From: Bacillota bacterium
Lineage (GTDB): Bacteria; Bacillota; Clostridia; Acetivibrionales; DTU013
Direction of reading: 5' to 3'
Assembly (NCBI GenBank): GCA_023435745.1
Contig: JAEZMD010000007.1
Span: 106,738 to 170,737, forward strand
DNA length: 64,000 bases
The position numbers and the translations under genes were made by a program. The stretch's first letter is position 1. Each line of letters begins with the position of its first letter. Below, piece after piece: positions 856 through 43,585 of the stretch. Below the pieces are notes generated by a model. It was not told the origin of the DNA. It did no database searches and saw only the letters and a program-made list of their open reading frames with translations.

Positions 856-1054
856 GGAACAAGCCTCATTTCTATCATGCCAGCTCAATCATTGATTAAT
901 CCAGTCTTGGAGTCCATAAACACGTGTTAAATTTTGTATGATTTTAGTTTATCACATGTATTGAAAAAAATCAACACTTTTTTAAAATTCCTATGAATTC
1001 CTTGGAGTCCCTTAGAATTCCTCAAATTTCACTGGCCTTCCTCTGACCTTGTCT

Positions 1055-1104
1055 AAATAGAAAATGAACAAGGCGTGCAGCTGTTATTCCTATATGCACG
1101 CCTT
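1055..1104 (-). terminator. Intrinsic terminator after the dehydrogenase gene
   Basis: Perfect 10-bp stem AAGGCGTGCA (1070-1079) / TGCACGCCTT (1095-1104). On the minus strand it is followed by GTTCATTTTCTATTT. Confidence 0.6.
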
Positions 1105-1123
1105 ATATATCTGTTTGCTATTC

Positions 1124-2014
1124 TTATTTTTTTACCTCAATTCCGGCCATCTTTTCATAGAATTGAACGATTCCGCTGTGATCCAGCCCTGCTTTGCCAT
1201 CCACCTTCAATGCCTGCATGGTCTCCAATATCTGGCTTGTCAACGGTACCGGCACGCCTACCTCATGCGCTGTATCCATCGCATTCATCAGATCCTTTAT
1301 GTGCAGCTCTATACGGAAACCCGGCTTAAAGTTTCTGTTGAGCACCATTGGCGCCTTTGCATCTAAAACCGTACTTCCGGCAAGTCCGCCTCTGATGGCT
1401 TGATATACCTTTTCCGGGTTGACGCCGGCCTTTGTAGCCAGTACCATAGCCTCCGACATTGCGGCAATATTCAAAGCAACAATGATCTGGTTGGCAAGCT
1501 TTGTCATATTTCCGCTTCCAATTTCACCTATCAGGACGACTGAACTTCCCATGACCTTCAATACGCTCTCCACTTTTTCAAAAGCGTCCTGCGGACCTCC
1601 TACCATTATGGAAAGAGTACCGTCGATTGCTTTGGGTTCACCACCGCTGACCGGCGCGTCCAACATAATTCCTCCGGCTTTCTTGAGCTCCTCTGCAATT
1701 TCCTTTGAAGCAAGAGGGGCTATTGAACTCATATCCACCAGTATGGTACCCGCCTTAATTCCTTCGGCTACTCCGTTTTTGCCCAGAACAGCTTCCTTCA
1801 CATGCGGTGAATTAGGCAGCATCGTAATGATGAGATCGGTTTTTTGAGCTACATCCTTCGGTGAGCTTCCCTGTTCGGCTCCCGCTGCTGTTAATTCATC
1901 TGCAGCCGCTTTTACAATATCATACACGACCAAAGAGTAACCTGCCTTCAGCAGGTTCTTTGCCATCGGCTTTCCCATTATTCCAAGACCGATAAATCCT
2001 ACTTTATTAAACAT
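1124..2014 (-). CDS. NAD(P)-dependent beta-hydroxyacid dehydrogenase (3-hydroxyisobutyrate / tartronate-semialdehyde reductase family)
   Basis: N-terminal Rossmann motif MFNKVGFIGLGIMGKPMAKNL and family-typical length. The ATG at 2014 is preceded by GGAGGAAATACA; the longer track ORF (to 2035) lacks an RBS. Confidence 0.85.
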   Translation of the reverse strand: MFNKVGFIGLGIMGKPMAKNLLKAGYSLVVYDIVKAAADELTAAGAEQGSSPKDVAQKTDLIITMLPNSPHVKEAVLGKNGVAEGIKAGTILVDMSSIAPLASKEIAEELKKAGGIMLDAPVSGGEPKAIDGTLSIMVGGPQDAFEKVESVLKVMGSSVVLIGEIGSGNMTKLANQIIVALNIAAMSEAMVLATKAGVNPEKVYQAIRGGLAGSTVLDAKAPMVLNRNFKPGFRIELHIKDLMNAMDTAHEVGVPVPLTSQILETMQALKVDGKAGLDHSGIVQFYEKMAGIEVKK

Positions 2015-2051
2015 TGTATTTCCTCCGGTTCCCACATTAATTTTTACATAC

Positions 2052-3023
2052 CTATTTATTCAACATTTTCCTGACTTTTTCCGCTATATCATGATCTGTG
2101 AGCGCATAATGCTCAAGCAATTCCTCATAAGTATACGCTGACTGGCCAAATACATCCTGTATTGCCACAACTTCTATCGGAACTGCTTTACCACGCAAAG
2201 CATAGGTGATTGCGCTGGCCAATCCTCCGATACAGCTGTGCTCTTCAGCCGTAACGACGCCTTTCATCCCCGCAGCCAGATCATTGATCGCCTCTTCATC
2301 CAACGGCTTTAATGTACTCACATTGACTACTCTTACCGAAACGCCTTCTTTTTCAAGGGTTTCAGCAGCCTTTAAAGCCATTGATACCATCATGCCGATC
2401 GCGAATATTGTTATATCCTTTCCTTCCTTTAATACATAAGGCTTTCCGAGCTTGAACTCCTGATCCTCCGGAAAAATTTCAGGCATATCATTTCTTATAA
2501 TCCTCACATAGACCGGTCCGTCATATTCCGTAATCGCTCTTGTAACTTTTTTCATTTCAATGGCGTCACAAGGAGCGATAACCGTCATGTTCGGAATGGC
2601 TCTCATGATAGCAATGTCCTCCACCGACTGATGAGTGGCTCCGTCGCCGAAGTCGGACAACCCCGAGCTTGAACCGATGATCTTTACGTTCAGCCCTCCC
2701 GTACAAATGCTTTGGCGGATCTGATCGAACGGACGTCCTGACGCAAAAACCGCAAAAGTATTTGCAAATGGGATTTTTCCCGTCAGTGAAAGCCCTGCAG
2801 CAAATGAAATCATGTTTGCTTCCGCAATACCCATTTCAAAATACCGTTCAGGGAATTCCTGCTGGAACTCATACGTCATGGTTGATTTTCCTAGATCTGC
2901 CTCCAGCACTACTATATCCTTGTTTTCCTTACCTAATTCAATCAGGGTTTCCCCATATACCTTTCTCTGGTTGCTGAGCTTTATATCCCGCTCATTGTTG
3001 CCCCCCGCGTTATCCATAGCCAT
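2052..3023 (-). CDS. Transketolase, C-terminal (pyrimidine-binding) subunit
   Basis: 323 aa. Resembles the C-terminal half of transketolase (GIAEANMISFAAGLS, FASGRPFDQIR) and pairs with the N-terminal subunit directly upstream. Confidence 0.9.
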   Translation of the reverse strand: MAMDNAGGNNERDIKLSNQRKVYGETLIELGKENKDIVVLEADLGKSTMTYEFQQEFPERYFEMGIAEANMISFAAGLSLTGKIPFANTFAVFASGRPFDQIRQSICTGGLNVKIIGSSSGLSDFGDGATHQSVEDIAIMRAIPNMTVIAPCDAIEMKKVTRAITEYDGPVYVRIIRNDMPEIFPEDQEFKLGKPYVLKEGKDITIFAIGMMVSMALKAAETLEKEGVSVRVVNVSTLKPLDEEAINDLAAGMKGVVTAEEHSCIGGLASAITYALRGKAVPIEVVAIQDVFGQSAYTYEELLEHYALTDHDIAEKVRKMLNK

Positions 3024-3036
3024 ATCTGCAGCTCCT

Positions 3037-3852
3037 TTACATTAAACTTTTACAAGCCTGATCGTACTGTTCTTGCGTCAAAGATCCATTATGAAATGCA
3101 ACATTATTTTCCGCACAACATATCCCTTTTCCCTTAACCGTATTAGCAATAATAACGGTGGGCTTCCCTTTAACCTTTTCTGCTTTATCCAGAGCATCTA
3201 TGATTTGTTCGATATCATGCCCGTCGATTTCGATAACATTCCAGTTAAATGCTTCCCATTTCTCCTTCAAAGGATTTGTATCGAAGCGTTCAACGATAGC
3301 TCCTGTGGCCTGCAGCCTATTGCGGTCCAGAATTACCGTCAGATTGTCAAGCTTATAATTAGCCGCAGACATGGCAGCTTCCCAGATCTGGCCTTCGGCT
3401 ATTTCACCGTCGCCCACTATACAGTAAACCCTGTACGATTTTTCGTCCAGCTTTGCTCCTGCCGCAATCCCGCAGGATATCGACAGGCCTTGCCCCAATG
3501 AACCCGTATTGGCTTCTATGCCCGGAGTCTTTCTCATATCCGGATGGCCCTGAAGCATGGATCCTAACTTTTTTAATCCTGCCAATTCCTCTTCGCGGAA
3601 ATAACCGCACATGCCAAGCGCGGCATACTGCACTATCGCCGCATGTCCCTTGCTGAAAATCAACCTGTCCCTGTCCTCCCAATGCGGATTCTTTGGATCA
3701 TGCCTCATTTTTTGAAAGTAAAGCACGGATACAACGTCGGCAATTGAACAGGAACCTCCGAAATGGCCTGTCTTGTCTGGTCCTACCATTTTTACGATGT
3801 CGAGCCGGACTGCCTTTGCCTTTTTGCTGAGCCCTTCAATGGAGCTGTTCAT
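3037..3852 (-). CDS. Transketolase, N-terminal (TPP-binding) subunit
   Basis: 271 aa with a TPP-binding signature (GHFGGSCS, GSLGQGLS, VGDGEIAEGQIWEA). This is a split transketolase arrangement. Confidence 0.9.
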   Translation of the reverse strand: MNSSIEGLSKKAKAVRLDIVKMVGPDKTGHFGGSCSIADVVSVLYFQKMRHDPKNPHWEDRDRLIFSKGHAAIVQYAALGMCGYFREEELAGLKKLGSMLQGHPDMRKTPGIEANTGSLGQGLSISCGIAAGAKLDEKSYRVYCIVGDGEIAEGQIWEAAMSAANYKLDNLTVILDRNRLQATGAIVERFDTNPLKEKWEAFNWNVIEIDGHDIEQIIDALDKAEKVKGKPTVIIANTVKGKGICCAENNVAFHNGSLTQEQYDQACKSLM

Positions 3853-3882
3853 AATATCAATCCTTTCTTGTGTGATGTAGTA

Positions 3883-4590
3883 CTACTTGACTTCTTCCGT
3901 TACCAACACTTTTTTAACCTTGCTCATCGTTGAATCAATATGTTCCTTCATAAGCTCGGCAGATAATTTGTCATCCTTGCTTTTTATGGCTTCAAGAATT
4001 TTTTTATGGTAGTATATGCCTCCCTCATAGCCTGTTAATCCGACAATTTCTTCCATTGATTTTTTTAGCATATCCGACAGTATTGCATTCACTTTTATGA
4101 TAACGTTATTATGAGTAGCGATAGCCATAGCATAGTGGAAATTCAAATCCTGGGCCGAAAACAACTGTTTATCGCCCTGACTGTCTTCCATTTTTTTTAT
4201 GATATTGGTCATTCTCTCAATATCATGCTCATCAGCCCGTTTGGATACCAGCCTGGCGCTTTCGACCTCGATAATATTTCTGAATTCAAGCATCTCAAGC
4301 ACATTTGGCCTTTCAATCGTCAATATGGGAAGTAAAGTATCGAAATAGTCACTGGGAATGATCTCAGAAACAAAAGTCCCCTCTCCCCTCTTTATGATTA
4401 AAACTCCCATCCCCACAAGGCGGTGAATTGCTTCTCTCACCGAGACCCTGCTCACTTCAAAAAGATCCACAAGTTCAAGCTCACCGGGTATTTTCGAACC
4501 CGGTGACCATTCCCCTGATACTATTTGATCCTTCATCTGCTCAAATACTTCATCACTGACTCTTTTTTTCTCAATTGCTTTAATAGACAT
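3883..4590 (-). CDS. GntR/FadR-family transcriptional regulator (winged HTH + FCD domain)
   Basis: 235 aa. N-terminus ...SGEWSPGSKIPGELELVDLFEVSRVSVREAIHRL is a GntR wHTH; the C-terminus is an all-helical FCD-like domain. Confidence 0.85.
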   Translation of the reverse strand: MSIKAIEKKRVSDEVFEQMKDQIVSGEWSPGSKIPGELELVDLFEVSRVSVREAIHRLVGMGVLIIKRGEGTFVSEIIPSDYFDTLLPILTIERPNVLEMLEFRNIIEVESARLVSKRADEHDIERMTNIIKKMEDSQGDKQLFSAQDLNFHYAMAIATHNNVIIKVNAILSDMLKKSMEEIVGLTGYEGGIYYHKKILEAIKSKDDKLSAELMKEHIDSTMSKVKKVLVTEEVK

Positions 4591-4687
4591 TGATTACCTC
4601 TTGTCAAAACGACCTAATTCAAATAAATTCTCTCGTTGTAGTAAAGATTTTTTTATCTGTTGAGCTTCAACGAGGCCGACTCGTTAT

Positions 4688-4704
4688 ATGATGTATTACA
4701 TCAT
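4688..4704. promoter_or_regulatory. 17-bp perfect palindrome ATGATGTA-T-TACATCAT; candidate GntR-type operator
   Basis: Seen directly in the sequence. It lies just downstream of a TTGACA/TATAAC-like promoter upstream of the GntR gene. The TGTATTACA core fits the GT-N-AC logic of GntR/FadR operators. Confidence 0.45.
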
Positions 4705-4710
4705 AACACA

Positions 4711-4739
4711 ATGTTATAATATTTATATCTAATTGTCAA
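4711..4739 (-). promoter_or_regulatory. Sigma-A-like promoter of the GntR-transketolase-dehydrogenase unit
   Basis: On the minus strand there is TTGACA (4734-4739) and, 15-17 nt later, TATAAC/TAACAT (4711-4718). Confidence 0.4.
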
Positions 4740-4818
4740 GCAGCATTTTTTGATTCATCACCGCTTACAAAAAATAGTTAAGATCCTTAATATAGCATAA
4801 TCATTTAGGTACAGGGAT

Positions 4819-5613
4819 TTATACTGTTTTACCCTTCCATAAGGGATATACCATGCGTATGATCTTACTGAAATTCTCTGCATCCCATGCACTTCTTCCG
4901 ATAAAAAGGCCATCAATTTCAGGCATTTGTATTAATTCCTCTGCATTCTGAGGATTCACACTGCCCCCATATAGAATAGGTATCTGTAACCCTGTCTTTT
5001 CACCAAACAGCTCAAAAAGAACTTTTCGTATTACTCCATGCTTTTGTGCAGCATACTCTTTGGTCGCGGGTATCCCATTGACACCAATAGCCCACACAGG
5101 CTCATAGGCAATCCATATTTGTTGTGCCTGTTTCTCGTTTACCCCATACAGGCCTATTTTTATCTGAGTACTCAATATCTCGTCGCTTAAGTCATATTCC
5201 TTCTGTTCCAATGTCTCACCTATACATAGTAATGCTTTGAAGCCATGCTCCAAGGCACATCTTACCTTAAGATTCGCCTGCAGGTCTGTCTCGCCCAGTA
5301 CATGACGCCTTTCAGAATGCCCGATCTCCACAATGCTCACTCCGACTTCCTTCAGCATCAACGGAGATATCTCGCCGGTGAACTGTCCCCTATCCTCCCA
5401 GCCCATATTTTGCGCTCCCAGCAGTATCTTGCTTCCCTTCAGCTGCCTTCCTGCGCTCTCCAGCGTTGTGAAGGATGGTATGACGAACAATTCAAGATCG
5501 GTTTCGGGCATGCCTGCTGTCAGTAAATCCAATTCCTTCAAATAGCCAAGTGTCTCGGATATCGTCTTGTACATCTTGGTGTTTGTTCCAAGATATAGTT
5601 TTCTTTGTCTCAT
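4819..5613 (-). CDS. Triosephosphate-isomerase-family paralog (accessory; possible tetrulose-phosphate isomerase/racemase)
   Basis: TIM catalytic motifs are present: GTNTKMY (Lys), IGHSERR (His), AYEPVWAIG (Glu). It sits in a sugar operon rather than with gap-pgk. The ATG at 5613 is preferred over the GTG at 5622. Confidence 0.8.
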   Translation of the reverse strand: MRQRKLYLGTNTKMYKTISETLGYLKELDLLTAGMPETDLELFVIPSFTTLESAGRQLKGSKILLGAQNMGWEDRGQFTGEISPLMLKEVGVSIVEIGHSERRHVLGETDLQANLKVRCALEHGFKALLCIGETLEQKEYDLSDEILSTQIKIGLYGVNEKQAQQIWIAYEPVWAIGVNGIPATKEYAAQKHGVIRKVLFELFGEKTGLQIPILYGGSVNPQNAEELIQMPEIDGLFIGRSAWDAENFSKIIRMVYPLWKGKTV

Positions 5614-5615
5614 CA

Positions 5616-6089
5616 CTAACACTCCCCCGACACTTTCAGGTTTTCAGATTCTATCTTCCTAATTTCTTCCACCTTAGGAGTCGAAGGTCCATCCTTGAAG
5701 GTCAGAGTTATCCATTCACCCAGAATCTTCTTCGCCAGTTCATACCCTATAACCCGTTCACCCATACAAATGACATTACAGTCATTGCTCAGTATCGACC
5801 GCTCTGCCGAAAAATTGTCATGACACAGCGCCGCCCGAATCCCATAGAATTTATTAGCTGTTATAGACATTCCAATTCCTGTACCGCATACCAGTACACC
5901 TTTCTTGCTGTAACCGCTGTCTATGATCGCATTACATACCTTTGCTGCCACATTCGGGTAGTAAATGCTGTCTTCCTTGGAAAAACAACCGACATCCTCC
6001 ACGTTTATACCTTTTTTCTTCAAAAAATCGACTAAAACATCTTTCATATCTACAGCCGCATTGTCGCAGCCTATCACTATCGTATCCAT
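5616..6089 (-). CDS. rpiB: RpiB/LacA/LacB-family sugar-phosphate isomerase
   Basis: 157 aa with MDTIVIGCDNAAVDMK... and VLVCGTGIGMSITANK, typical of RpiB. Confidence 0.85.
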   Translation of the reverse strand: MDTIVIGCDNAAVDMKDVLVDFLKKKGINVEDVGCFSKEDSIYYPNVAAKVCNAIIDSGYSKKGVLVCGTGIGMSITANKFYGIRAALCHDNFSAERSILSNDCNVICMGERVIGYELAKKILGEWITLTFKDGPSTPKVEEIRKIESENLKVSGEC

Positions 6090-6093
6090 TAAC

Positions 6094-6741
6094 CTACTCC
6101 CCCTTCTGCTGTTCCATCCATTCCCTCATCGCCCTGAACATCAGATAAACACTTGTCGCTCCCGCATCCTGGTACCCTATCGCTCTTTCCATCAGCGACT
6201 TCGCCCGTCCGAATTTTGCAATATAATTCTTTGTCGCGTCCATACCCTGTTCCGCCGCTTTCTCTGCGGCCGCCAGCATCTCGGTGAAATCCTTGCCTGC
6301 TGCTGCATATTCACTCATTGCAATGCACGCCGGCTCGAATGCATCTACCATTGTCTTGTCTCCAGGCTCGGCTTTCCCACGCTGTTTTATTACTGCAAGG
6401 CTCTTTTCCATAATCTGAGCAAAACTAACGGTTGTCAATTCGTCAATCGTATCTGCGCCTTTTATGCCTCCCAGGAAAATTGAACTGAATATGACTCCCG
6501 ATGCGCCTCCCATTGAGTTGAGCATTGCCATACCAATTTCCCTGAACATATCGTTTATGCTTCCAAATTCCTTTGCTTCGAGCACGCTCTTCACTTTGAG
6601 AAATCCGGTCTCCATACCGATGCCGTGATCCCCGTCACCTATTTTTGAATCCACTTGTGTAAGGTATGGCTTGCTTTCAATTATTTTACCGGCGAGATAT
6701 ATCAACATTTCTTTTGTTTGAATAATATTAAGCCGCTCCAT
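6094..6741 (-). CDS. dhaL: Dihydroxyacetone-kinase-family subunit L (nucleotide-binding)
   Basis: 215 aa with the DGDHGIGM motif, next to DhaK. Confidence 0.9.
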   Translation of the reverse strand: MERLNIIQTKEMLIYLAGKIIESKPYLTQVDSKIGDGDHGIGMETGFLKVKSVLEAKEFGSINDMFREIGMAMLNSMGGASGVIFSSIFLGGIKGADTIDELTTVSFAQIMEKSLAVIKQRGKAEPGDKTMVDAFEPACIAMSEYAAAGKDFTEMLAAAEKAAEQGMDATKNYIAKFGRAKSLMERAIGYQDAGATSVYLMFRAMREWMEQQKGE

Positions 6742-6769
6742 TAAATCCTCTCCCCGCTACATTCAATTA

Positions 6770-7762
6770 TCACCTTCTGTTATAGTATGGGCTCCAGCAA
6801 GGCACATCATAGTACTTCTGCAGCTCGTCATCCAGCCTGAACAAAGTGATCGAGGCTCCCGCCATTTCCTGTGTGGTTATATATGAATTGACTTCCATGT
6901 CGTATATAACTATATTTGCTTCCTTCAACCTTTTTGCCAGATGGCGGTTCATTATATATAACTCTGCTAGAGTCGTAGAACCTAAGCCGTTTACAAGTGT
7001 ACAAACGCGATCCCCGGCTTTTATACCCGAATCTTCAAGTATCTTATCCAGCAATATATCTGTGATCTCATCCGCAGGAAGTATTTTCATGCGTTTGATC
7101 CCGGGCTCGCCGTGAACTCCCATGCCGAATTCTATCTCATCGTCCGGCAGCGTGAAGGCAGGCTTGTCTTCCCCGGGTATCGTTCCGCCCGACAGCGCCA
7201 CTCCTACACTAAATATATTGTCTCTGGCTTTCGCGGTAACCCTGTATGCTTCGTCAAGGTCTAAACCCGCCCCGGTTGCGGCACCCCCTATCTTTATTAC
7301 ATAAAGGTCTCCCGCTATTCCTCTGCGATCCTCAGTCCTTTCCTTTGGAGCAGAGGATATATCGTCCCACACCCGTACGGTACGGCTTTGTATGCCCATA
7401 TCCTCGAGCATTTCAGCGGTCATGTCGAAGTTCAGATTGTCACCTGCATAGTTGCCGTATACGAACAGGATTCCCTTTCCCCTGTTCACCGATAATGCGG
7501 TTTGCAGTATCGTATTCGGATCCGGCGATGCGAATATGTTGCCGGAGGCTGTGGCATCCGCTAGGTTTTCTCCAAGGAACATCGCGAAAAGAGGCTCGTG
7601 TCCGCTGCCGCCTCCGATTACAAAGCTGACTTTGTCCTTTACCTCTCTGACTTTCAGTCCCTTTACGGCTCCAACCCGTTCATACAAATGCCCGTATGCT
7701 TCTATAAAGCCTTCCAGTGTTTCATTCACAACATCCTTCGGCGAATTAATTATTTTTTTCAT
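6770..7762 (-). CDS. dhaK: Dihydroxyacetone-kinase-family subunit K (substrate-binding)
   Basis: 330 aa with MKKIINSPKDVVNETLEGF... and GGGSGHEP, typical of DhaK. Confidence 0.9.
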   Translation of the reverse strand: MKKIINSPKDVVNETLEGFIEAYGHLYERVGAVKGLKVREVKDKVSFVIGGGSGHEPLFAMFLGENLADATASGNIFASPDPNTILQTALSVNRGKGILFVYGNYAGDNLNFDMTAEMLEDMGIQSRTVRVWDDISSAPKERTEDRRGIAGDLYVIKIGGAATGAGLDLDEAYRVTAKARDNIFSVGVALSGGTIPGEDKPAFTLPDDEIEFGMGVHGEPGIKRMKILPADEITDILLDKILEDSGIKAGDRVCTLVNGLGSTTLAELYIMNRHLAKRLKEANIVIYDMEVNSYITTQEMAGASITLFRLDDELQKYYDVPCWSPYYNRR

Positions 7763-7820
7763 TGGCTATTGCCCCTCCCTGGCACGACTTTACATTATCA
7801 TTAACATTGAGAACACCGTA

Positions 7821-9200
7821 TCACATTCTGTCTATTGCAATCCCTGGAATGTACTTGCATACTTCTTCTAATACGTCAGCAAATTTCCCATGCACTCCCG
7901 CACAGTGGTGTATGTACGGGCCTTCCACAAGAGTCCTCTCCCATTTCACCCAGTTGTCCACTTCGAGCCACATATAGGTTCCCTTTGTTTTGGGTCCGTC
8001 TATGCCTTTCCCTTCTCCTATGAACATCCGGTATTCTCCATGATCGCCATCAAACCTTAGAACTGTTACATCGCCGTTCTTTATTTTCCATTCCCCCGTT
8101 CCGCATTTATGCTCGGGGAATATGAAATGATGTCCCAGTTCCTTTGCTGAATTCTCATCGGCAAGCGACGGCGGGAAGTTTCCGCAGTGCCATAAAAGCT
8201 CTGCATTGTCGTTTTCCGGATGACGCACGGTAAGATCGGCGAAAAATACGGGTGACGCTGAAAGCGAGGCTTCCTGCAGCAATATAGCTGTTATCGCACC
8301 ATGTATATCCGTTTCACACACCACCGGCAGACCTTCCTCAGCAAGCATTGCGTTTACCATACACGGCATTATCCCAAGGCCCGTCTGAAGAGCATTCCAG
8401 CATTGTATTGCTACACAGGTGCAGCCATTCTCTTCGCTCATCCTTCTGATTGCAACCTTTAATGCGGCAATCTTCCTTACGTCATCCTCATCGTTGCCGG
8501 CTACGCACACTGTGCTTCTGATCTTCTCCATTGACCTTTCAAACTCTTCTCCTGCCTCATCCTTTATCTTCAGCGTCAGCTGTACCAGATCTATAAGTGA
8601 AACAGGAAATGTATGAATATTGAATTTTTCTATCAATTCTCCCTCGTTGCAGATAACTGACCAAAATCCGTCTGGTCTCGGCCCTATCTGGAGAATCTTT
8701 AGCCTTCTGAAAGCCCTGACTGCGGAGCATACCCTGATAAACCTGCGGTAGCCGCTTATGAACGCATTTTCCTCCGGCCGGCAGTTTTCAATGTATGTGA
8801 ATGGTACGTTGAATCGGCGCAAAACTTTTCCGGTCGCAAACAGACCGCACTGAGTATCCCTCGTTCTCAGTCCGTCGTCCAGAGGCGCATCGTCTCTCGG
8901 CCCCCATAAAAGCACCGGTTTTCTTAATTCTCTTGCTGCCTTGGCGACCAGATCCTCTGTTCCGAAATTGCAGTGTGGAAAAAACAGTCCATCGACTTCA
9001 TTTGCCTTCATTTTTGCTATAATGGCAGGAAGTTCCCTTTCGTCAAATAGCAGTCCCTCGCTATTTATATCATCAATATCTATCAGCTCTGCGCCAAGCG
9101 GCTTAATAGTCTCCAGAACCAACTGCCTATATCTGCGTGCTTCATCTTTGCTAAATACGTTTCGTCTCGTCGGCAAATACCCTATTTTTACTGTTCCCAT
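7821..9200 (-). CDS. L-fucose/L-arabinose-isomerase-family aldose-ketose isomerase (substrate unknown)
   Basis: 459 aa. The N-terminus VKIGYLPTRRNVFSKDEA and the overall length and pattern resemble the short FucI-like family of Firmicutes. Confidence 0.7.
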   Translation of the reverse strand: MGTVKIGYLPTRRNVFSKDEARRYRQLVLETIKPLGAELIDIDDINSEGLLFDERELPAIIAKMKANEVDGLFFPHCNFGTEDLVAKAARELRKPVLLWGPRDDAPLDDGLRTRDTQCGLFATGKVLRRFNVPFTYIENCRPEENAFISGYRRFIRVCSAVRAFRRLKILQIGPRPDGFWSVICNEGELIEKFNIHTFPVSLIDLVQLTLKIKDEAGEEFERSMEKIRSTVCVAGNDEDDVRKIAALKVAIRRMSEENGCTCVAIQCWNALQTGLGIMPCMVNAMLAEEGLPVVCETDIHGAITAILLQEASLSASPVFFADLTVRHPENDNAELLWHCGNFPPSLADENSAKELGHHFIFPEHKCGTGEWKIKNGDVTVLRFDGDHGEYRMFIGEGKGIDGPKTKGTYMWLEVDNWVKWERTLVEGPYIHHCAGVHGKFADVLEEVCKYIPGIAIDRM

Positions 9201-9279
9201 ATTTTACACCCCGTTATCTGTTTCAGATTTGATTATCAAAAGCTAGCCAATGCTATTTATTTAATAACCCGTAATAATA

Positions 9280-10116
9280 TCAACCCTTGACGGATCCTGC
9301 AGTCACACCTGCAATAATTTGTTTGCTTAGTATTAGATAAGTCAATATTGTTGGTACTACTGCAATTGAAATCGCCGCAAAAGTCGCACCCCAGTCCCTT
9401 CCTATCTGAGAATCCATATATGCAGCAAGCCCGGCCTGCAACATCTTTTGACTGGTAGATGATACAAAAGTTTGTGACACAAGAAGGTTATTCCATATAC
9501 CAAAGAAGGTAAGCATTAGTACTGTAACGTAACCATTACCAGTCATCGGTACTGCAATATGGAAGAAACATCTGTATACGCCGCACCCGTCTATTACTGA
9601 TGATTCTATTATCTCATCAGGTATAAATTTATAGAATCCGATAAGCAAAAAAGTAGCCATGGATATGCTGCTTCCAAAAGCAATGATCAACGCCCATAAG
9701 GTATTTAAAACATTCATATTCCTGAACATAATAAACTGTGGCAGCAATAGTACAAAAGGAGGGATAAACATACCCAATCTGATAAATAATGAAACGGCGC
9801 CAGACAATTTCCATTTAAGCTTGCTTAATGCAAAAGCTGCAGTAGAACTCAGTACTAAAACTATAAAAAGAGAAGCAATCGTTACAATAACTGTATTTTT
9901 AAAAAGCACACTAACCTTTCCAACTGTCCAGGCATATACATAATTGCCCAGATAGAGACCTTCCGGAAGTGAATAAATAGGATTCATTGTGAATTCCTCT
10001 GTTGTCTTAAAGGAAGAAAGAACAAGCCATATTAAAGGATATACTTCCACGATAAGGAAGGTGATAATAAAAATACGCAATATTATCTTTCCGAATTTTT
10101 TCTTGTCTTTTTTCAT
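9280..10116 (-). CDS. Carbohydrate ABC transporter permease
   Basis: 278 aa, multi-TM, MalG/BPD_transp_1-like; follows a partner permease. Confidence 0.9.
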   Translation of the reverse strand: MKKDKKKFGKIILRIFIITFLIVEVYPLIWLVLSSFKTTEEFTMNPIYSLPEGLYLGNYVYAWTVGKVSVLFKNTVIVTIASLFIVLVLSSTAAFALSKLKWKLSGAVSLFIRLGMFIPPFVLLLPQFIMFRNMNVLNTLWALIIAFGSSISMATFLLIGFYKFIPDEIIESSVIDGCGVYRCFFHIAVPMTGNGYVTVLMLTFFGIWNNLLVSQTFVSSTSQKMLQAGLAAYMDSQIGRDWGATFAAISIAVVPTILTYLILSKQIIAGVTAGSVKG

Positions 10117-10119
10117 TAT

Positions 10120-11010
10120 CTACACCTCCTCATTATTCTTTCTGTTAAGATAGTTAACACCTTGCGTTACCAGCAGAATAAAGAACATCATCATAACGGC
10201 AAGAAGACTTGCATAGCCGTACCGCCAATCATAAAATGCTGTTTGATAGGTATACAGGGATAAAACATATGTTGCACGTCCCGGGCCTCCCATAGTGAGA
10301 ACAGTTGGCATGTCATACACCTTAAAGGTATTATTCAGACATAATATAACCGACATGATTGTTACAGGACGCAATATGGGCATCAGGATACGCTTTATTG
10401 TCTGGAGAGTGCTGGCCCCATCGATTCTTGCTGCCTCTTCCAATTCCTTCGGAAATGCAACAATACCTGCATAAAAAATCACTGTATAGTACCCTATACT
10501 TCGCCAAATATCTGCAATGCACAAGGCGCCCAGAGCTGTTGCACTCGATCCTATCCAGGATTTAACCATGGATTCCAGGCCTACTGCTGCGAGTAAACCA
10601 TTTAATAACCCGTAATTCGGCTGTATCTCATATATCTTTGAAAATAGAGCTGCTACACCAACTGCGGGTATAACGACCGGCATATAGATCATGGTGCGCG
10701 ATAAATTAACAAAACGCTTCATCCCATATTTCAAAAACAAAGCTGTAAGCAATCCAAGCACAAGCTGTCCTGTTGCCGTAATCAGCACATATTTGATAGT
10801 AGTGGTTAAACTTCCGATAAACACCTTGTCCGCAAACAGCTTTGAAAAATTAGAAAAACCTGTGAACTTAAAGTCTAGGCCGGGAACTCCGTCAAAAAAC
10901 GAGAAATATAAAGATTGGCAAATCGGGTAAAAGGTAAACACTATATATACTAAAAGTGTTGGCAATATAAATACTATAATAGCTTTCTTGTCTCGTAATA
11001 GTTGATTCAT
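10120..11010 (-). CDS. Carbohydrate ABC transporter permease
   Basis: 296 aa, MalF-like, with an EAA-loop-like ELEEAARIDGAS. Confidence 0.9.
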   Translation of the reverse strand: MNQLLRDKKAIIVFILPTLLVYIVFTFYPICQSLYFSFFDGVPGLDFKFTGFSNFSKLFADKVFIGSLTTTIKYVLITATGQLVLGLLTALFLKYGMKRFVNLSRTMIYMPVVIPAVGVAALFSKIYEIQPNYGLLNGLLAAVGLESMVKSWIGSSATALGALCIADIWRSIGYYTVIFYAGIVAFPKELEEAARIDGASTLQTIKRILMPILRPVTIMSVILCLNNTFKVYDMPTVLTMGGPGRATYVLSLYTYQTAFYDWRYGYASLLAVMMMFFILLVTQGVNYLNRKNNEEV

Positions 11011-11097
11011 TTGAGCACTCCTTGTTATATATCTGCATCGGGGACATGTTTATATGTCCCCGATGCAGATGTTTGCGGCACCTAAACCAGCCGATGT

Positions 11098-12489
11098 TTA
11101 TTTTTTCAAGTCTTCTTCTATTGCTGCCGCTATAATCTCGCAGAATTGTTCCGGAGTAATGGCGCCCTCAGAAAGCAGCTGCCCTTCCTGAAATGCTTTT
11201 GTAGTAACGGCAGTTGACATATTGCCTTCAAACCAGGTCAATTGATATTCCATTGTGTTATAATAATCCATTATGTCGTTCATTAAAGGCGGGAAGCCAT
11301 CCGGCATCTCTACCTTATACGGTGAAATGGCTCCAAGTTCCCAAAGGTACTGGCCTATATTACTGACAAGAGCTTTAAGAACACCGTGATTTGTGCCTTC
11401 CTCGAACTTTGTCTTTCCAAAGCAAAGTGCCTGTCCCGGGTTTACAATAGCCATTTTTCGTCCATCTTCCTTGGTTTTTGAAGCCTCCATATTGGGCATG
11501 TTGAAGACACCGATGGCATCCGTCCCGATCTTATTGATTTCTGGATTCATAAGAGATGCTACGATAGTTCCTGTGTAATATATCATGGCTGTTTTGCCTG
11601 TCAGGAACATATTGATGGATGTAGAAACATCAATTGAATTCCAGCCTTCTCCGAAATACCCCTTCTGGAACAATCTCTGCATGTACCCGGTTGCCTCCGC
11701 ATAGCCCTCATCCCTGAAAGTAACTCCGTTTTTCATTGTGGAAGCATTTATAACAGCATCATGCCCGAGCATTCTGGTCATTGCCAACACGACCCAACGT
11801 GTAACCGGCCATTGGCCTGCACCACCTGCAACCATAGGCTGAATGCCGGCTGCTTTGAGCTTTTCACAGACAGCTTCGAATTCTTCCCATGTTTCAGGAA
11901 TTTTAATATTATTAGCTGCAAATATTTCTTTGTTATACCAAACACCGCTTATTGCATAACGGGTCGGCAGATAATAATATGGTCTGCCGTTTATAACATT
12001 CATTCCGCCTTTTGCACCATCTGCAACTATATCGTCATAATTAAACCCGAGTTCCTTAACAGCCTCCTCCATGTTGGCAATCCCGCCGGATTGAATGATA
12101 TTCTGCATTGCCCCGCCCGCCTCGGTAGTAAAAAAGTCGGGCACATCATTGGATGCTATAAGAAGTGATATTTTACCTGGTATATCCATTTGCTCAACCA
12201 CTTCGTAGTCATACGTGTAATTTGGGTTTTCAGCGACATAATCCTTCAGAACACGGCCAAAAACATAGCCGTAGTCACCCTTGTCATCCATAGCTCTTGA
12301 AGTGATGACATGGATATTGTAAGGTTTTCCTTCGGGTGCCGGCTCTGAGCTCTTGGCAGGCTCACTTCCCGTTTTGTCGACTGATGGTGAAGTTTTTGGA
12401 TCATTACCTGATGATGAACACGCTGCAAATAATCCCATTACGATAAATGCTACGAGGAATAATGATACTAAACGCATTGTTTTTTTCAC
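11098..12489 (-). CDS. Extracellular sugar-binding lipoprotein of ABC transporter
   Basis: 463 aa. Signal peptide with lipobox LFAAC followed by an S/P-rich linker; SBP family-1-like. Confidence 0.9.
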   Translation of the reverse strand: MKKTMRLVSLFLVAFIVMGLFAACSSSGNDPKTSPSVDKTGSEPAKSSEPAPEGKPYNIHVITSRAMDDKGDYGYVFGRVLKDYVAENPNYTYDYEVVEQMDIPGKISLLIASNDVPDFFTTEAGGAMQNIIQSGGIANMEEAVKELGFNYDDIVADGAKGGMNVINGRPYYYLPTRYAISGVWYNKEIFAANNIKIPETWEEFEAVCEKLKAAGIQPMVAGGAGQWPVTRWVVLAMTRMLGHDAVINASTMKNGVTFRDEGYAEATGYMQRLFQKGYFGEGWNSIDVSTSINMFLTGKTAMIYYTGTIVASLMNPEINKIGTDAIGVFNMPNMEASKTKEDGRKMAIVNPGQALCFGKTKFEEGTNHGVLKALVSNIGQYLWELGAISPYKVEMPDGFPPLMNDIMDYYNTMEYQLTWFEGNMSTAVTTKAFQEGQLLSEGAITPEQFCEIIAAAIEEDLKK

Positions 12490-12677
12490 GATCTGTTTCC
12501 TCCCAAATTAAGAAATTTTAACATTATAAAGCTTACGGTATCCAGTAGTCTATCCTTACTTACGGTCGGCCCTCAGGTCTGATCCGACACAATTAACCTC
12601 TTTATCCCCCCCCTTCGAATTAAATCAGCAAACCATCATAATTAAGGTAAACCACTAAGAAATTTTATCTACTCAAT

Positions 12678-14210
12678 CTATTTTTTAATGTTTAGTCTAA
12701 TCAGATTGATGGAGTGCTTTTTTGCTTTAAATATACAGCATTGGTCTGCAATGTTCGGTGCTGGAATTTCCCTGATTACAACTGCTTGTGGATCAGATAC
12801 TGTATTTGCCGCATTTACATCCTCGTGATAAATCTCAAAAGCTGTATTGCCAGTGTTTGAAATGATTTCACCATAAAAATCTATTTTTACGTCTATGTCT
12901 TCGTCAGGATGCTTGTTAACCAGAGAAATAAATACCCTTCCGTCGTGATCGCCTGTCACTGCTGCATCGATATAAGGTACTGTAGCTAAAGAATCCTGAT
13001 TATTGTCAATATTGTCCAGCTTCAATCTTGGCCTCTGACGCAGCGACTTTGGATCAATTGGCTGCACTACGGTAAAATTGTCGCACATAACATCGGAATT
13101 GTAAAAAATCTCTCCCGTATTATTGCTGAGCAAATCGAAAACATGGTATTGAGGCCTTAATACTAACTCATCCCCTTCAACCCTGACAGCTCCGTTTATA
13201 TTGATAAAAGCTGAGTAGTTTGCCATACCTACCGTATTGCAGTTGCGGATAAACATATTTATGATCGAGGCTGTAACAATTGCATTCTGCAGGTCATAAT
13301 TCCTGTCATCTGTTACGCCATCTATCTTCCAACCGTACATGTTCCATTCATCCCACGCAACCTTGATCCTGCTGCGACAGTTGTCGTTTGTTGCAGTCAT
13401 TATTGCTGCAACCGTAATATCCGTGAGCCTTTGCATATGCTCAGGTATATACATGCACTCCAGATAGTTGTTTTTGTCAAATATTCCCCAACCGCACGAA
13501 TAATGATGCGCCGAAACATAATCGATCAAATAGTTCAATTTCTTAAGTATGACGGTATTCCAATCCGAATTTTTTTCATATCCGCTTGCAATAAGCTTAA
13601 TACTGTTATCTACCCACCTCATTGCTTTGGCAAAATCAAAAGCAGCCTTAGCGTATTCTTCAGCATCCATATGGCACATTTGCCAGTCAGAGTACATTTC
13701 ATTGCCAAGACCCCAATATTTAACATTAAAAGGTTGTTCATATCCATGTTTTCTTCGCAGATTGGCATAATAAGTATCACCAGTTCCATTACAGTATTCC
13801 ACCCAGTGCATTGCCTCTTCAGCAGTACCGCTTCCCATATTTACACACAGGCAGGGTTCTGCTCCCAATTTTCGGCACAATTCAATAAAATCGGCTGTGC
13901 CAAATTGATTACTTTCTTCCGCCTGCCATGCGTAATCGAACATCTTTCTGCGGTCTTCCTTCGGTCCAATTCCATCCTCCCAGTGGTAATTCGATACAAA
14001 ATTACCGCCCGGATAACGAAGTATTGATGGCTTGACCTTTTTAAGAAGTGCGACGGTATCTTCCCTTTGACCATCGGAACAAGCATTTTTATTGCCTGGA
14101 TCATAAATTCCGCCGTAAATGTTTCCAAATGCATGCTCCAAAAAATGACCAAATATCTTGTGATCTACAGTACCGGCATTTTTTTTTAGATTTACTAAAA
14201 TTTTTGCCAT
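12678..14210 (-). CDS. GH51 alpha-L-arabinofuranosidase
   Basis: MAKILVNLKKNAGTVDHKIFGHFLEHAFGNIYGGIYDP..., WGLGNEM and WDEWN motifs. The ATG at 14210 is preceded by GGAGGACAAT. The longer track ORF (to 14315) reads through the operator sites. Confidence 0.85.
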   Translation of the reverse strand: MAKILVNLKKNAGTVDHKIFGHFLEHAFGNIYGGIYDPGNKNACSDGQREDTVALLKKVKPSILRYPGGNFVSNYHWEDGIGPKEDRRKMFDYAWQAEESNQFGTADFIELCRKLGAEPCLCVNMGSGTAEEAMHWVEYCNGTGDTYYANLRRKHGYEQPFNVKYWGLGNEMYSDWQMCHMDAEEYAKAAFDFAKAMRWVDNSIKLIASGYEKNSDWNTVILKKLNYLIDYVSAHHYSCGWGIFDKNNYLECMYIPEHMQRLTDITVAAIMTATNDNCRSRIKVAWDEWNMYGWKIDGVTDDRNYDLQNAIVTASIINMFIRNCNTVGMANYSAFININGAVRVEGDELVLRPQYHVFDLLSNNTGEIFYNSDVMCDNFTVVQPIDPKSLRQRPRLKLDNIDNNQDSLATVPYIDAAVTGDHDGRVFISLVNKHPDEDIDVKIDFYGEIISNTGNTAFEIYHEDVNAANTVSDPQAVVIREIPAPNIADQCCIFKAKKHSINLIRLNIKK

Positions 14211-14252
14211 ATTGTCCTCCTGAATTTTATTGAGTATTCTGAATCGTTTTAT

Positions 14253-14264
14253 GTGTGCGCACAC
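14253..14264. promoter_or_regulatory. Operator copy 1: perfect palindrome GTGTGCGCACAC
   Basis: Seen in the sequence, in the 5' leader of the GH51/ABC operon. The same 12-mer recurs at 17153. Confidence 0.6.
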
Positions 14265-14305
14265 GAAATGACTTATAAAAAAATATGTTTTCCACAAAAT
14301 TTTAT

Positions 14306-14317
14306 GTGTACGCACAC
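14306..14317. promoter_or_regulatory. Operator copy 2: GTGTACGCACAC (one mismatch)
   Basis: Lies just downstream of the -10 of the GH51 promoter. The shared extended context is ATGTGT(G/A)CGCACACG. Confidence 0.55.
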
Positions 14318-14329
14318 GTTCATAATAAT

Positions 14330-14358
14330 ATTGTATAGTAACACTGTTTTTTTGTCAA
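14330..14358 (-). promoter_or_regulatory. Sigma-A-like promoter of the GH51/ABC/isomerase/kinase operon
   Basis: On the minus strand: TTGACA (14353-14358), a 17-nt spacer, then TACAAT (14330-14335). Confidence 0.6.
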
Positions 14359-14392
14359 CCAAATCGGCAACAATTGTAATATTTTTATCCTC

Positions 14393-16048
14393 TTATATAG
14401 GCATCGGATTATGGTTTATGTAAATCAATATTGAAATAATGACAGCAACAGCAATTGAATATATAATAACAGGTACCGCATTCCTCATTATGATCCTGCC
14501 TTCATTACCTTCCGCGCCAACAGTAGCACATGCAGCCACAACATTATTGACACATATCATATTACCTATCGATCCTCCGATAACCTGCAGCGTTATTATA
14601 TAAACCTCTGGCATACTTAGTATTGAAGCGGTTTCGAACTGCAAGGACGAGAACAAAATATTTGAGACTGTGTTTGAACCTGAAATAAAGGCACCCAATA
14701 CTCCAATAAACGGCGATACGAAAGGATAAGCCATACCTGACAAATCAGCAAGAGAGCTAGCAAGAACCGTTAACATACTCTCGAGTCCTGCTCTATTTAC
14801 AGAAGAGTTCAGCATGAGCTGCACCATCGCTACGCCTGCAAATAGTGCCACAGCCGGTCCTGTTACCTGCTTGAAAGTGGTCGTCCATGACGATTTTACC
14901 CTGTTCCAACGCATTTTAAAGATAAAATGAGACAATACTGCAACAAGTATGAATGGAATAACTCCTGGCAGATAAGCCCACTTCAGTGAATAGTCAAGCC
15001 CTTCAACATTCAGTATGCTTCCTATGGTGATTTTCTGCGATGAGAGAATGCCCTTCAATCCCAGTGATGGAATTCGGGTAATTAAAAGAATTACAGCTAT
15101 AATAATATACGGAAGCCATACTTTAATTAGCGAATAATTCCCTTCTTCGTTTTCCTCGATAATAATATTTGCTTTCCAGTTATTTTCCCATTCTGATTCT
15201 CCGGGAAAATCCCAGATCGTTTTAGGCATTAAAAAGCCTTTTCTTGCAGCAGTAATCACAATGGCGAGTCCTGTAAATGCTCCCACAAGCGAAGGGAGCT
15301 CCGGCCCAAAAAGCATTGCAGTGGCAGCATACGGAATTACAAAGGCAAAGCCTGAAAACAATGCAAAAGGTATGACTTCCAACGCAGGCTTAAAGGAACG
15401 TTCCTTACCAAAGAATTTAGTCATCATGGCTACCCCTATCAAAGGGATGAATATACCTACTGCTCCGTGAGTTAATGCTATATATTTGGTTGCAGCCATT
15501 TCGAAAGCCTCATGGTTTGCCCCAACTGCCGAAAGGTTTCCCGCTATTGTACTGAATGCCGCCAAAGTTGGAGTTCCAACCACTCCGAATGCCACTGGAG
15601 TGCTATTGTAAATAAGGGCAACCATTGCTGCCGCTAGCGGCGGAAACCCTAATCCAACCAGAAGAGGACCCGCGAGTGCCGCCGGAGTTCCAAATCCGGC
15701 CGCTCCCTCAATAAAAGCGCCAAACATCCACCCTATGATTATTGCTTGGATTCTCCGGTCTTTAGTAATACTTGCAAAGCCCCTGTTTATAACGGACATT
15801 GCTCCGGATTGCTTTAGCGTATTCAGGACAAGTATTGCTCCGAATATTACTATTATTACATCCAGTGAACTTAATACTCCAAAAATCGAATATGCAAGAA
15901 TATGATGCAAGTCCATCTTCCAAACAAATAACGCCAGCACTGCAGTTATCAGCCATACTACCGGAAGCGCCTTACGTGCCGACCAGTTAGCGAAAGTCAT
16001 TAATACAACAGCTATAAGAATTGGTATTACTGCAACTAATGCATACAT
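14393..16048 (-). CDS. lctP: LctP-family (L-lactate/glycolate) permease
   Basis: 551 aa, polytopic, with a typical LctP N-terminus and length. Confidence 0.85.
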
Positions 16049-17097: not shown

Positions 17098-17152
17098 CTA
17101 ATACTTTCCTCCTCTTTTAACCGGGTAATTTTATTTGGATAGTTTACATATT

Positions 17153-17164
17153 GTGTGCGCACAC
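17153..17164. promoter_or_regulatory. Operator copy 3: perfect palindrome GTGTGCGCACAC
   Basis: Lies immediately downstream of the -10 of the LacI/lctP promoter, which implies autoregulation. Confidence 0.6.
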
Positions 17165-17168
17165 GTAA

Positions 17169-18934: not shown

Positions 18935-18950
18935 TAATCCTCCATCCGAC

Positions 18951-20609: not shown

Positions 20610-20627
20610 ATTATTACACCGCCTTTC

Positions 20628-20667
20628 TTTGAAATAAGCAAATAGCCGGGTATTCTGTCTCCCGGCT
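20628..20667 (-). terminator. Hairpin AGCCGGG-N10-CCCGGCT plus U-rich tail; cvpA terminator or ilvD leader attenuator
   Basis: 7-bp GC-rich stem 20644-20650/20661-20667, followed on the minus strand by ATTTGCTTATTTC. It lies between cvpA and ilvD. Confidence 0.5.
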
Positions 20668-30883: not shown

Positions 30884-30914
30884 GGTACACCCCGCTAAGT
30901 CTTTATTAACTATC

Positions 30915-43563: not shown

Positions 43564-43585
43564 AGTATTCTCGCTCCTATTCTCT

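Follow-up and report, generated by a model that had tools for sequence, protein, structure and literature searches.

L-Arabinose is among the main pentoses of plant cell walls, and the textbook pathway through AraA, AraB and AraD is used to predict arabinose use from genomes. As the type of arabinose and arabino-oligosaccharide operon for comparison we took Bacillus subtilis araABDLMNPQ-abfA. Here we describe an array of 13 genes near the start of a 64,000-nucleotide stretch of the Bacillota contig JAEZMD010000007.1, from an uncultured member of the Clostridia (the whole stretch is called the window below), which is like the B. subtilis ara operons in having a CUT1 oligosaccharide importer, an intracellular GH51 enzyme, an aldose-ketose isomerase within the operon and control by a repressor. 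It is unlike them in that AraA gives way to a distant AraA-fold protein which matches only Fucose_iso_C, and AraB and AraD to DhaK/DhaL and to paralogs of RpiB and triosephosphate isomerase (TIM). The array is two independent units, unit 1 at 4819-14358 and unit 2 at 1124-4590. We tentatively explain these as a LacI-repressed arabinoside operon whose DhaKL, TIM and RpiB proteins would provide a route to pentose phosphate, accompanied by an unrelated second unit. Put forward with somewhat greater reserve is an undescribed phosphorylative L-arabinose pathway in anaerobic Bacillota, in which phosphorylation at C1 would be followed by a TIM/RpiB carbonyl walk to D-ribulose-5-phosphate, and of which a second version would use a protein of the ketose-3-epimerase family.

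The triad of kinase, TIM paralog and RpiB paralog is like that formed with EryH (TpiA2) and EryI (RpiB) in Brucella and Rhizobium and by LerK, LerI and DerI in Mycobacterium smegmatis. Erythrulose kinases include Dha-type enzymes. In the described pathway L-erythrulose is converted to L-erythrulose-1-phosphate, then to D-erythrulose-4-phosphate and finally to D-erythrose-4-phosphate (PMC10733421). Unlike the erythritol/threitol loci (compare the Rhizobium locus L177), the present locus contains no polyol dehydrogenase, EryA, EryB or EryC and is fed by a glycosidase and an aldose isomerase.

Among the Bacillota, a Dha-type kinase is also accompanied by second copies of TIM and RpiB in the Listeria monocytogenes cluster lmo0343-lmo0348, which encodes a transaldolase, a short-chain dehydrogenase (SDR), RpiB, TpiA2 and a dihydroxyacetone (DHA) kinase (PMC3721983). 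It differs from the window in having a dehydrogenase and a transaldolase and in lacking a glycosidase, an ABC importer and an aldose isomerase. The Listeria cluster also has a transketolase and DhaM.

A D-apiose transketolase pathway was reportedly described by Carter et al. in 2018, as cited in PMC13001218. Apiose-type clusters of Bacillota share the isomerase family with the window; there the isomerase is accompanied by a dedicated transketolase, an FGGY kinase, an apiosidase and a transporter of the monosaccharide or phosphotransferase system (PTS) type, and DhaKL, TIM and RpiB are absent. In Escherichia coli SE15 the apiose cluster ECSF_RS02670-02715 has been experimentally validated (PMC13001218).

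Our search of the literature, whose coverage was incomplete, returned nothing relevant on the gene combination of the window, on the metabolism of L-ribulose-1-phosphate or 3-pentulose, or on an L-arabinose isomerase of the FucI family. The protein families and the logic of importer, glycosidase and isomerase are known; it is the combination of parts and the predicted intermediates that appear to be new.

Upper half of unit 1 and its recurrence

All 13 open reading frames (ORFs) were found on the minus strand where a first-pass annotation of the window had placed them, and their families were confirmed by Pfam and NCBIfam. Two starts were amended: the GH51 gene begins at ATG 14210, which is preceded by an AGGAGG ribosome-binding site, rather than at GTG 14315, and the TIM gene probably begins at ATG 5613.

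The first gene of unit 1 (12678-14210; Pfam Alpha-L-AF_C and ASD1_dom) encodes a cytoplasmic GH51 alpha-L-arabinofuranosidase of 510 amino acids without a signal peptide. Its best PDB matches were Thermotoga arabinofuranosidases (3s2c, 4atw and 3ug3, E ~1e-107), and the catalytic motifs are kept, with the acid/base Glu in GNE and the nucleophile Glu in DEWN (WGLGNEMY and VAWDEWNM align with WGIGNEMY and IALDEWNV), so that by its sequence the enzyme looks functional. At 337 bits against a cut-off of 625 it is a member of the family and not the NCBIfam ArfA equivalog. The importer genes that follow encode a CUT1-family solute-binding lipoprotein (11098-12489; SBP_bac_1/8, lipobox LFAAC) and two ABC permeases (10120-11010 and 9280-10116, together spanning 9280-11010; BPD_transp_1). 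PDB relatives of the solute-binding protein are only remote and bind xylo-, arabinoxylo- or chitin-oligosaccharides, from which no specificity can be deduced. In CUT1 systems the ATPase is usually encoded elsewhere.

The next gene (7821-9200) encodes an isomerase of the FucI/AraA superfamily. Of the Pfam families it matched Fucose_iso_C (PF02952) alone, with no match to AraA_N, AraA_central or Arabinose_Iso_C, and no PDB chain was matched by sequence. Its AlphaFold model (pLDDT 92) was closest in Foldseek to the L-arabinose isomerases of E. coli, Thermotoga and Geobacillus (AraA; TM score 0.85-0.88, E ~1e-27) and fitted the L-fucose/D-arabinose isomerases (FucI) more poorly (TM score ~0.75). 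Residues E296, E334, H338 and H432 were invariant in 31 homologs, and their spacing, compared by sequence position only, resembles that of the AraA manganese site (E306, E333, H350 and H450). The protein is well below the cut-off for the sulfoquinovose isomerase SftI (NF048012; 171 bits against 700).

A metagenomic contig from Bacillota (L172) encodes an isomerase with 59% identity, placed between araB and araD and followed by a GH127 gene and an ABC importer; GH127 is the beta-L-arabinofuranosidase family. The neighbours exceed the cut-offs for ribulokinase (758 bits against 428) and L-ribulose-5-phosphate 4-epimerase (362 bits against 257), and because it is flanked by bona fide araB and araD this isomerase holds the AraA slot of a classical arabinose operon. 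The L172 cluster thus has an isomerase of the same clade as the window and the same logic of import, splitting and isomerisation, whereas its lower pathway consists of ribulokinase and 4-epimerase. In a bootstrapped neighbour-joining tree of the isomerases, the members from the two module variants described below, the member from the AraBD-type cluster and three others formed one clade with 98% bootstrap support, within which L172 was sister to a variant-B member, L088 (88%). The isomerases of apiose-type clusters formed a separate clade (82%).

The module was found in 12 other loci and occurs in two variants. Variant A, which comprises, in that order, GH51, the isomerase, DhaK, DhaL, RpiB and TIM beside a CUT1 importer, was present in nine loci (L001-L006, L085, L090 and L091) from uncultured Bacillota and metagenomes, with isomerases 66-85% identical to that of the window. 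There were two departures from this set: L005 had no RpiB match, and in L085 RpiB is canonical and located beyond a reversed gene. In one metagenome-assembled genome that otherwise has the gene order of the window (L004), about 2.2 kb (12446-14655) is inserted between dhaK and dhaL and may be a mobile element. Variant B (L088, L092 and L093) combines the same isomerase with GH127, a ketose-3-epimerase-like protein, DhaKL and RpiB; its epimerase-like protein, which takes the place of the TIM paralog, most resembles D-psicose 3-epimerase (182 bits against a cut-off of 300). The RpiB proteins of L092/L093 share 72% identity with that of the window and their DhaK proteins just 38%, a contrast which fits a common late intermediate reached from different kinase substrates.

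The association recurs across genomes and therefore exceeds chance. The solute-binding proteins and permeases of the other module loci are not orthologous to those of the window whereas the enzymes are, and for that reason we consider that the released sugar matters and not the oligosaccharide that carries it. Across the loci the module is tied to GH51 or GH127, in line with the link to arabinofuranosides that had been suspected from the window itself. L-arabinose is indicated as the substrate because these two unrelated families share it as their product, and because the isomerase has the AraA fold and its sister replaces AraA between araB and araD. The isomerase is thus most likely an L-arabinose isomerase analogue acting on L-arabinose rather than on a tetrose or apiose, although for the protein of the window this specificity is one that we infer. 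The same isomerase clade is paired with AraB and AraD, with DhaKL and RpiB-like and TIM-like proteins, or with DhaKL and RpiB-like and epimerase-like proteins, and on account of this shared partner the three lower halves should be functionally equivalent. We found no AraA, AraB, AraD, FGGY kinase, apiosidase or PTS gene in the window; nor was there any araB or araD near a DhaKL-type module, and canonical AraA-like matches occurred only in unrelated FucI-like loci.

Other relatives of the isomerase keep different company. L086 (7455-13715) has an isomerase of the same clade (55% identity) with a rhamnulokinase-like FGGY kinase, a protein of the class II ketose-bisphosphate aldolase family and GH3, adding what would be a fourth kind of lower pathway in this clade. 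Less closely related (45% identity) is the FucI-like isomerase of L109 (9983-20442), whose cluster also encodes a glycyl-radical enzyme and its activase, one PfkB and one FGGY kinase, a Zn-dependent dehydrogenase and GH127 and may represent an anaerobic radical route for an arabinose-derived compound. Distant relatives with 38-47% identity mostly adjoin class II aldolases.

Lower half of unit 1, the proposed route and its rivals

The Dha-type kinase is encoded by two genes, one for the substrate-binding subunit DhaK (6770-7762; Dak1, 349 bits) and one for the nucleotide-binding subunit DhaL (6094-6741; Dak2). DhaK has counterparts of E. coli His56, Asp109 and the hemiaminal-forming His218 and falls below the cut-off of TIGR02363 (331.7 bits against 406.25), and DhaL passes TIGR02365 (170.5 bits against 138.3). 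The closest PDB entries to DhaK are PTS-dependent DhaK proteins; DhaL matches 2btd and 3pnl. As had been noted in the first-pass annotation, DhaM was not found in the window, either by Pfam on ORFs of at least 150 amino acids, by tblastn with E. coli DhaM or by inspection of small intergenic ORFs, and it was likewise not found within 10 kb in any module locus. The phosphoryl donor would then be ATP, or DhaM would be encoded elsewhere.

The TIM paralog (4819-5613; Pfam TIM) is a TIM barrel in which the catalytic Lys, His and Glu are present. Its best PDB match is the L-erythrulose-1-phosphate isomerase 11ef, at 223 bits versus 211 for the TIM of Thermotoga maritima, with overall identities of 48% to the 11ef isomerase and 46% to TIM. 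The lid loop 6 carries a one-residue insertion, IG[VAT]xG[IVT]PA (IGVNGIPA in the window) versus IG-TGxxA in TIM, and loop 8 reads F[IV]GR[SA]AW (FIGRSAW in the window) versus VGGASL in TIM. These features are common to the window, the variant-A homologs except L091, 11ef/LerI and Rhizobium EryH. The canonical phosphate grippers of TIM, IGTGK in loop 6 and GGAS in loop 8, are absent from the paralog, which still passes NF000722 (311 bits, cut-off 293). The paralog and the other module homologs keep Asn10 (GTNTKMY), versus Ser in the two true LerI/EryH proteins compared, 11ef and Rhizobium EryH (GTSWKMN). In L091 (~6925-7582), close to the end of the contig, the reading of the TIM paralog turns mid-gene into a canonical TIM (IG-TGKTAT) and stops short of loop 8, which is probably an assembly chimera of the paralog and a housekeeping gene, and this sequence was left out of the comparison.

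The RpiB paralog (5616-6089; LacAB_rpiB) retains the catalytic Cys66 and Thr68. In place of His10, the ring-opening His99 and the phosphate-binding Arg133 and Arg137 it has Asn, Ser, Pro (Pro/Ser in homologs) and Lys, respectively. It shares the motif CHDNFSAERSILSN, of the CHD/THD-x-[FY]SAER type, with EryI of Rhizobium leguminosarum, for which the plasmid erythritol locus L177 served as reference. At the phosphate site, positions 133 and 137 are Pro/Ser and Lys, versus Arg and Asn in EryI. The paralog passes TIGR01120 narrowly (150.8 bits against 138.65) and falls below the cut-off of the DerI model NF051858 (142.9 bits against 240). The likeness to the erythritol/threitol enzymes lies in the loop-6 insertion and FIGRSAW of TIM and in the loss of His99 and the motif CHDxxSAER of RpiB. 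Judged by these motifs, neither the TIM nor the RpiB copy is a housekeeping enzyme; both are specialised paralogs of the erythritol/threitol type (EryH/LerI and EryI/DerI, respectively).

From these parts the following route can be proposed. The solute-binding lipoprotein and the two permeases, with an ATPase encoded elsewhere, would import an arabinose-containing oligosaccharide, from which the cytoplasmic GH51 enzyme would free L-arabinose, and the AraA-fold isomerase would convert this to L-ribulose. DhaK/DhaL would phosphorylate the hydroxymethyl group adjoining the carbonyl, giving L-ribulose-1-phosphate. The EryH/LerI-like TIM paralog would then shift the carbonyl from C2 to C3, yielding 3-pentulose-5-phosphate when renumbered from the phosphate end, and the EryI/DerI-like RpiB paralog would shift it by one more carbon to give D-ribulose-5-phosphate, or D-xylulose-5-phosphate if the opposite face were protonated. 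The product would join the pentose phosphate pathway, and DhaKL with the TIM and RpiB paralogs would stand in for AraB and AraD. The chemistry by which erythrulose-1-phosphate becomes erythrulose-4-phosphate and then erythrose-4-phosphate would in this way be extended to a homologue with one carbon more; L-ribulose differs from L-erythrulose in bearing CH2OH in place of one C4 hydrogen, and the C3 configuration is the same. No epimerase would be needed because both stereocentres of L-ribulose would be erased or re-formed en route. The site of phosphorylation, the two carbonyl shifts and the end product are predicted from the enzyme families. There are precedents for the two shifts: NCBIfam lists 2-oxo-tetronate isomerase, which carries out a C2 to C3 carbonyl shift, among the relatives of the epimerase-like protein of variant B, and isomerisation of a 3-ulose to a 2-ulose is known from the ribulose monophosphate pathway.

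Two other fates for L-ribulose were considered and rejected. L-ribulose-5-phosphate is not expected as the kinase product, as a Dha-type kinase acts next to the carbonyl or one carbon from it and two isomerases could not invert C4 stereospecifically starting from a 5-phosphate. Splitting of L-ribulose to give dihydroxyacetone would require an aldolase, which the module does not have.

Several observations weigh against the pentose route. We know of no enzyme reported to make or use L-ribulose-1-phosphate in this manner, or 3-pentulose-5-phosphate, so that three new specificities would be needed at once. On known chemistry alone, a triad of kinase, TIM-like and RpiB-like proteins points to a tetrulose and not to a pentulose. 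For variant B the pentose model must assume that the epimerase-like protein does not epimerise and instead performs a C2-to-C3 shift of the carbonyl. DhaK and DhaL resemble PTS-dependent enzymes, yet no DhaM is encoded nearby; L085 is the sole locus in which a fully canonical RpiB stands in place of the specialised type; and isomerase relatives with 50-54% identity sit in apiose-type clusters, showing that specificity varies within the family.

Of the rival readings, the one that survives best is a tetrose route, a serious rival that we nevertheless regard as unlikely. Here the isomerase would convert L-threose (or L-erythrose) to L-erythrulose, DhaKL would form L-erythrulose-1-phosphate, the TIM paralog D-erythrulose-4-phosphate and the RpiB paralog D-erythrose-4-phosphate. 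No new enzyme chemistry would be required, and L-threose shares its C2/C3 configuration with L-arabinose, so an AraA-like enzyme could accept it. The lower enzymes belong to families that perform exactly these steps in Brucella, Rhizobium and Mycobacterium and carry the family motifs (PMC10733421), although the correspondence is incomplete, with Asn10 kept by the TIM paralog where true LerI/EryH have Ser and RpiB differing from EryI at the phosphate site. Variant B would also be explained simply, L-erythrulose being epimerised to D-erythrulose and phosphorylated at C4 with no need of LerI, and this too counts against a pentose substrate. The tetrose route fits the rest of the module less well. 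We know of no natural tetrose glycoside, yet the module always occurs with an oligosaccharide importer and GH51 or GH127; neither a polyol dehydrogenase nor an enzyme of the EryA, EryB or EryC type was found in the window or the module loci; and the sister isomerase takes the place of AraA in the araB-araD cluster of L172.

It is improbable that DhaKL is no more than a kinase for dihydroxyacetone or glyceraldehyde, accompanied by additional copies of TIM and RpiB that boost triose and pentose phosphate flow during growth on arabinosides. A comparable role has been proposed for Listeria lmo0343-0348, where a co-regulated cluster of DAK, TpiA2, RpiB and transaldolase exists (PMC3721983), and in the window no catalytic residue of the E. 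coli DHA kinase is missing from DhaK, and the TIM and RpiB paralogs pass one NCBIfam TIM model and TIGR01120, respectively. Set against these matches, TIM loops 6 and 8 and RpiB His99, Arg133 and Arg137 are altered as in tetrulose-phosphate isomerases. The module has no aldolase or glycerol dehydrogenase that would make dihydroxyacetone or glyceraldehyde from L-arabinose or L-ribulose, and L-ribulose would be left without a fate in the absence of AraB and AraD.

Catabolism of D-apiose, in which the isomerase would make apulose, DhaKL would replace the FGGY apulose kinase and the neighbouring split transketolase would act as AptA/AptB, is very improbable: the split transketolase does adjoin the module of the window, but it is only 41%/33% identical to AptA/AptB, of a general clostridial type and absent from other module loci, the window has no apiosidase gene or FGGY kinase, and apulose, being tertiary and without a hydrogen at C3, would block a LerI-type shift and a 3-epimerase alike. 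Isomerase relatives with 50-54% identity do occur beside apiosidase genes, in clusters of LacI, isomerase, two transketolase subunits and FGGY kinase from Thermobacillus, Evansella, Listeria and Monoglobus, but these form their own clade (82%) outside that of the window (98%). These transketolase-type clusters are assigned to apiose because they are similar to the E. coli cluster and next to apiosidase genes; the proteins of the Bacillota clusters match those of the experimentally validated E. coli cluster (PMC13001218).

In L. monocytogenes NCTC7974 (L180, 4004-13086), LacI, a FucI-like isomerase, a split transketolase and an FGGY kinase are followed by a PTS transporter and DUF4038 (apiosidase-family), and in the pectin specialist Monoglobus pectinilyticus (L181, 10802-18232) the same four functions are followed by a DUF5060 protein. 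Both clusters resemble the D-apiose transketolase pathway; to our knowledge apiose use by Listeria has not been described.

Regulation of unit 1 and the separate unit 2

A gene for a LacI-family repressor (16105-17097, minus strand; Pfam LacI and Peripla_BP_1/3) lies upstream of unit 1. A strand-symmetric operator palindrome with the core GTGTGCGCACAC was located by pattern matching at 17151-17166, upstream of the LacI gene and just downstream of a promoter-like site at 17197-17169, and two further copies (14251-14266 and 14304-14319) lie between the unit 1 promoter and the GH51 start. The pattern gave six matches in the window, i.e. three sites on two strands, and none of 100 shuffles reached six. 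The putative promoter of unit 1, already proposed in the first-pass annotation, is a sigma-70-type site at 14330-14358 on the minus strand (TTGACA-17-TACAAT, 11/12 positions). Matches of this type were not in excess in the region (44 found versus 40.6 expected from shuffles), and this one gains weight because two operator palindromes separate it from the GH51 start codon.

LacI homologs with 47-53% identity adjoin the module in L001-L006 and L090. The same operator was found ahead of both LacI and the first module gene in L001 and L003, and ahead of the first module gene in L004-L006. As the operators precede both the LacI and the GH51 genes and recur in five related loci, unit 1 is predicted from sequence to be controlled by this LacI protein via the three operators.

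Between the LacI gene and its operon sits a gene of the lactate/glycolate permease family (14393-16048, minus strand), which is not at that position in related loci. Directly upstream of the LacI gene, an acetolactate-synthase-like thiamine diphosphate (ThDP) enzyme and a dehydratase of the IlvD/Edd family are encoded at 17264-20741 on the minus strand; the block at 18-20 kb of the window, which covers most of these two genes, has a GC content of 53.5%, versus ~41% around it.

Unit 2 begins with a GntR/FCD regulator (3883-4590; Pfam GntR and FCD), which is kept with the transketolase genes in L178. A split transketolase follows (span 2052-3852), with its N-terminal subunit at 3037-3852 (Transketolase_N) and its C-terminal subunit at 2052-3023 (Transket_pyr and Transketolase_C). 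The last gene (1124-2035; NAD_binding_2/11) encodes a beta-hydroxyacid dehydrogenase which passes the 2-hydroxy-3-oxopropionate (tartronate semialdehyde) reductase model NF008592 (509 bits against 397). A promoter-like site at 4711-4739 on the minus strand (TTGACA-17-TAACAT, 10/12 positions) falls inside the 228-bp gap between the TIM and GntR genes. In the scan of the window with the GTGTGCGCACAC pattern no operator copy was found ahead of the GntR gene. The stretch from the TIM stop to the GntR start contained no convincing terminator (z = +1.1), and read-through from unit 1 into unit 2 is possible. The first strong intrinsic terminator, a hairpin with a U-rich tail (1052-1106, minus strand; -22.7 kcal/mol, z = -3.8, reached in 0 of 200 shuffles), comes after the dehydrogenase gene and closes the array. 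Just downstream of it is another LacI-family gene (1-888, minus strand), which starts near 800 and runs off the start of the window.

We keep the two units apart because the GntR-transketolase-dehydrogenase unit was missing from all 12 further loci of the module and is conserved independently elsewhere; on the same grounds a single 13-gene pathway was rejected. In L178 (34-10898) the block is conserved at 89% identity beside secE-nusG and a different sugar cluster, which consists of canonical AraA, FGGY, a zinc-dependent alcohol dehydrogenase (Zn-ADH) and DeoC. In a relative of [Clostridium] cellulosi (L179, 6134-10111) the order is transketolase, transketolase, dehydrogenase and glycerate kinase, and the block in related Clostridia suggests an uncharacterised link of transketolase to glycerate metabolism. 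More than 100 homologs of the C-terminal transketolase subunit, spread over Ruminiclostridium, Anaerobacterium, Thermoclostridium and other clostridial genera, share 68-93% identity with it, whereas identity to the proven E. coli enzymes is only 41% (N-terminal subunit and AptA) and 33% (C-terminal subunit and AptB). Given these many close homologs, the enzyme is most likely the general pentose-phosphate transketolase of the lineage, of a widespread clostridial type. Unit 2 is accordingly read as a general split transketolase with a glycerate-forming reductase, useful for pentose catabolism and not specific to it.

The first-pass annotation had joined both units in one sugar locus, with a split transketolase likened to those of D-apiose catabolism and a tetrose or a branched sugar as possible substrate. 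Its gene content held up, as did the lack of DhaM, the separation of the TIM and RpiB copies from housekeeping enzymes and the tie to arabinofuranosides. The single pathway and the special transketolase did not, and the AraA-fold isomerase, the ties to GH51 and GH127 and the replacement of AraA between araB and araD displace its suggested substrates, of which the tetrose route is retained as a rival.

Other genes of the window and significance of the module

Elsewhere in the window we observed an AbiL abortive-infection gene pair (29122-30916, minus strand; AbiLi 272 bits and AbiLii 82 bits in PADLOC), located in the part with the lowest GC content (~39%). A 729-amino-acid protein (48246-50435, plus strand) has an unusual regulator architecture, in which a LacI-type helix-turn-helix is fused to a CUT1 solute-binding domain (SBP_bac_1/8). 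Its gene is divergent from a second CUT1 ABC operon (42454-46783) and a GDPD/DUF4996 gene (46992-47831). A histidine operon (52722-61681, minus strand) comprises a HisZ-like gene, hisG, hisD, hisC, hisB, hisH, hisA, hisF and hisIE, with purC (SAICAR synthetase; 55698-56582) inserted between hisB and hisH.

If the tetrose route were the true one, the module would provide the first example of a free aldotetrose being channelled into erythrose-4-phosphate. If instead the proposed pentose route is true, it would be a third phosphorylative solution to arabinose catabolism, with two new metabolites, L-ribulose-1-phosphate and 3-pentulose-5-phosphate, and the "carbonyl-walking" isomerase logic of erythritol catabolism would reach the pentoses. 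A function would also be assigned to a large unannotated clade of "L-fucose isomerase-like" proteins, and genome-based predictions would change for gut, digester and soil Clostridia that are without araBAD.

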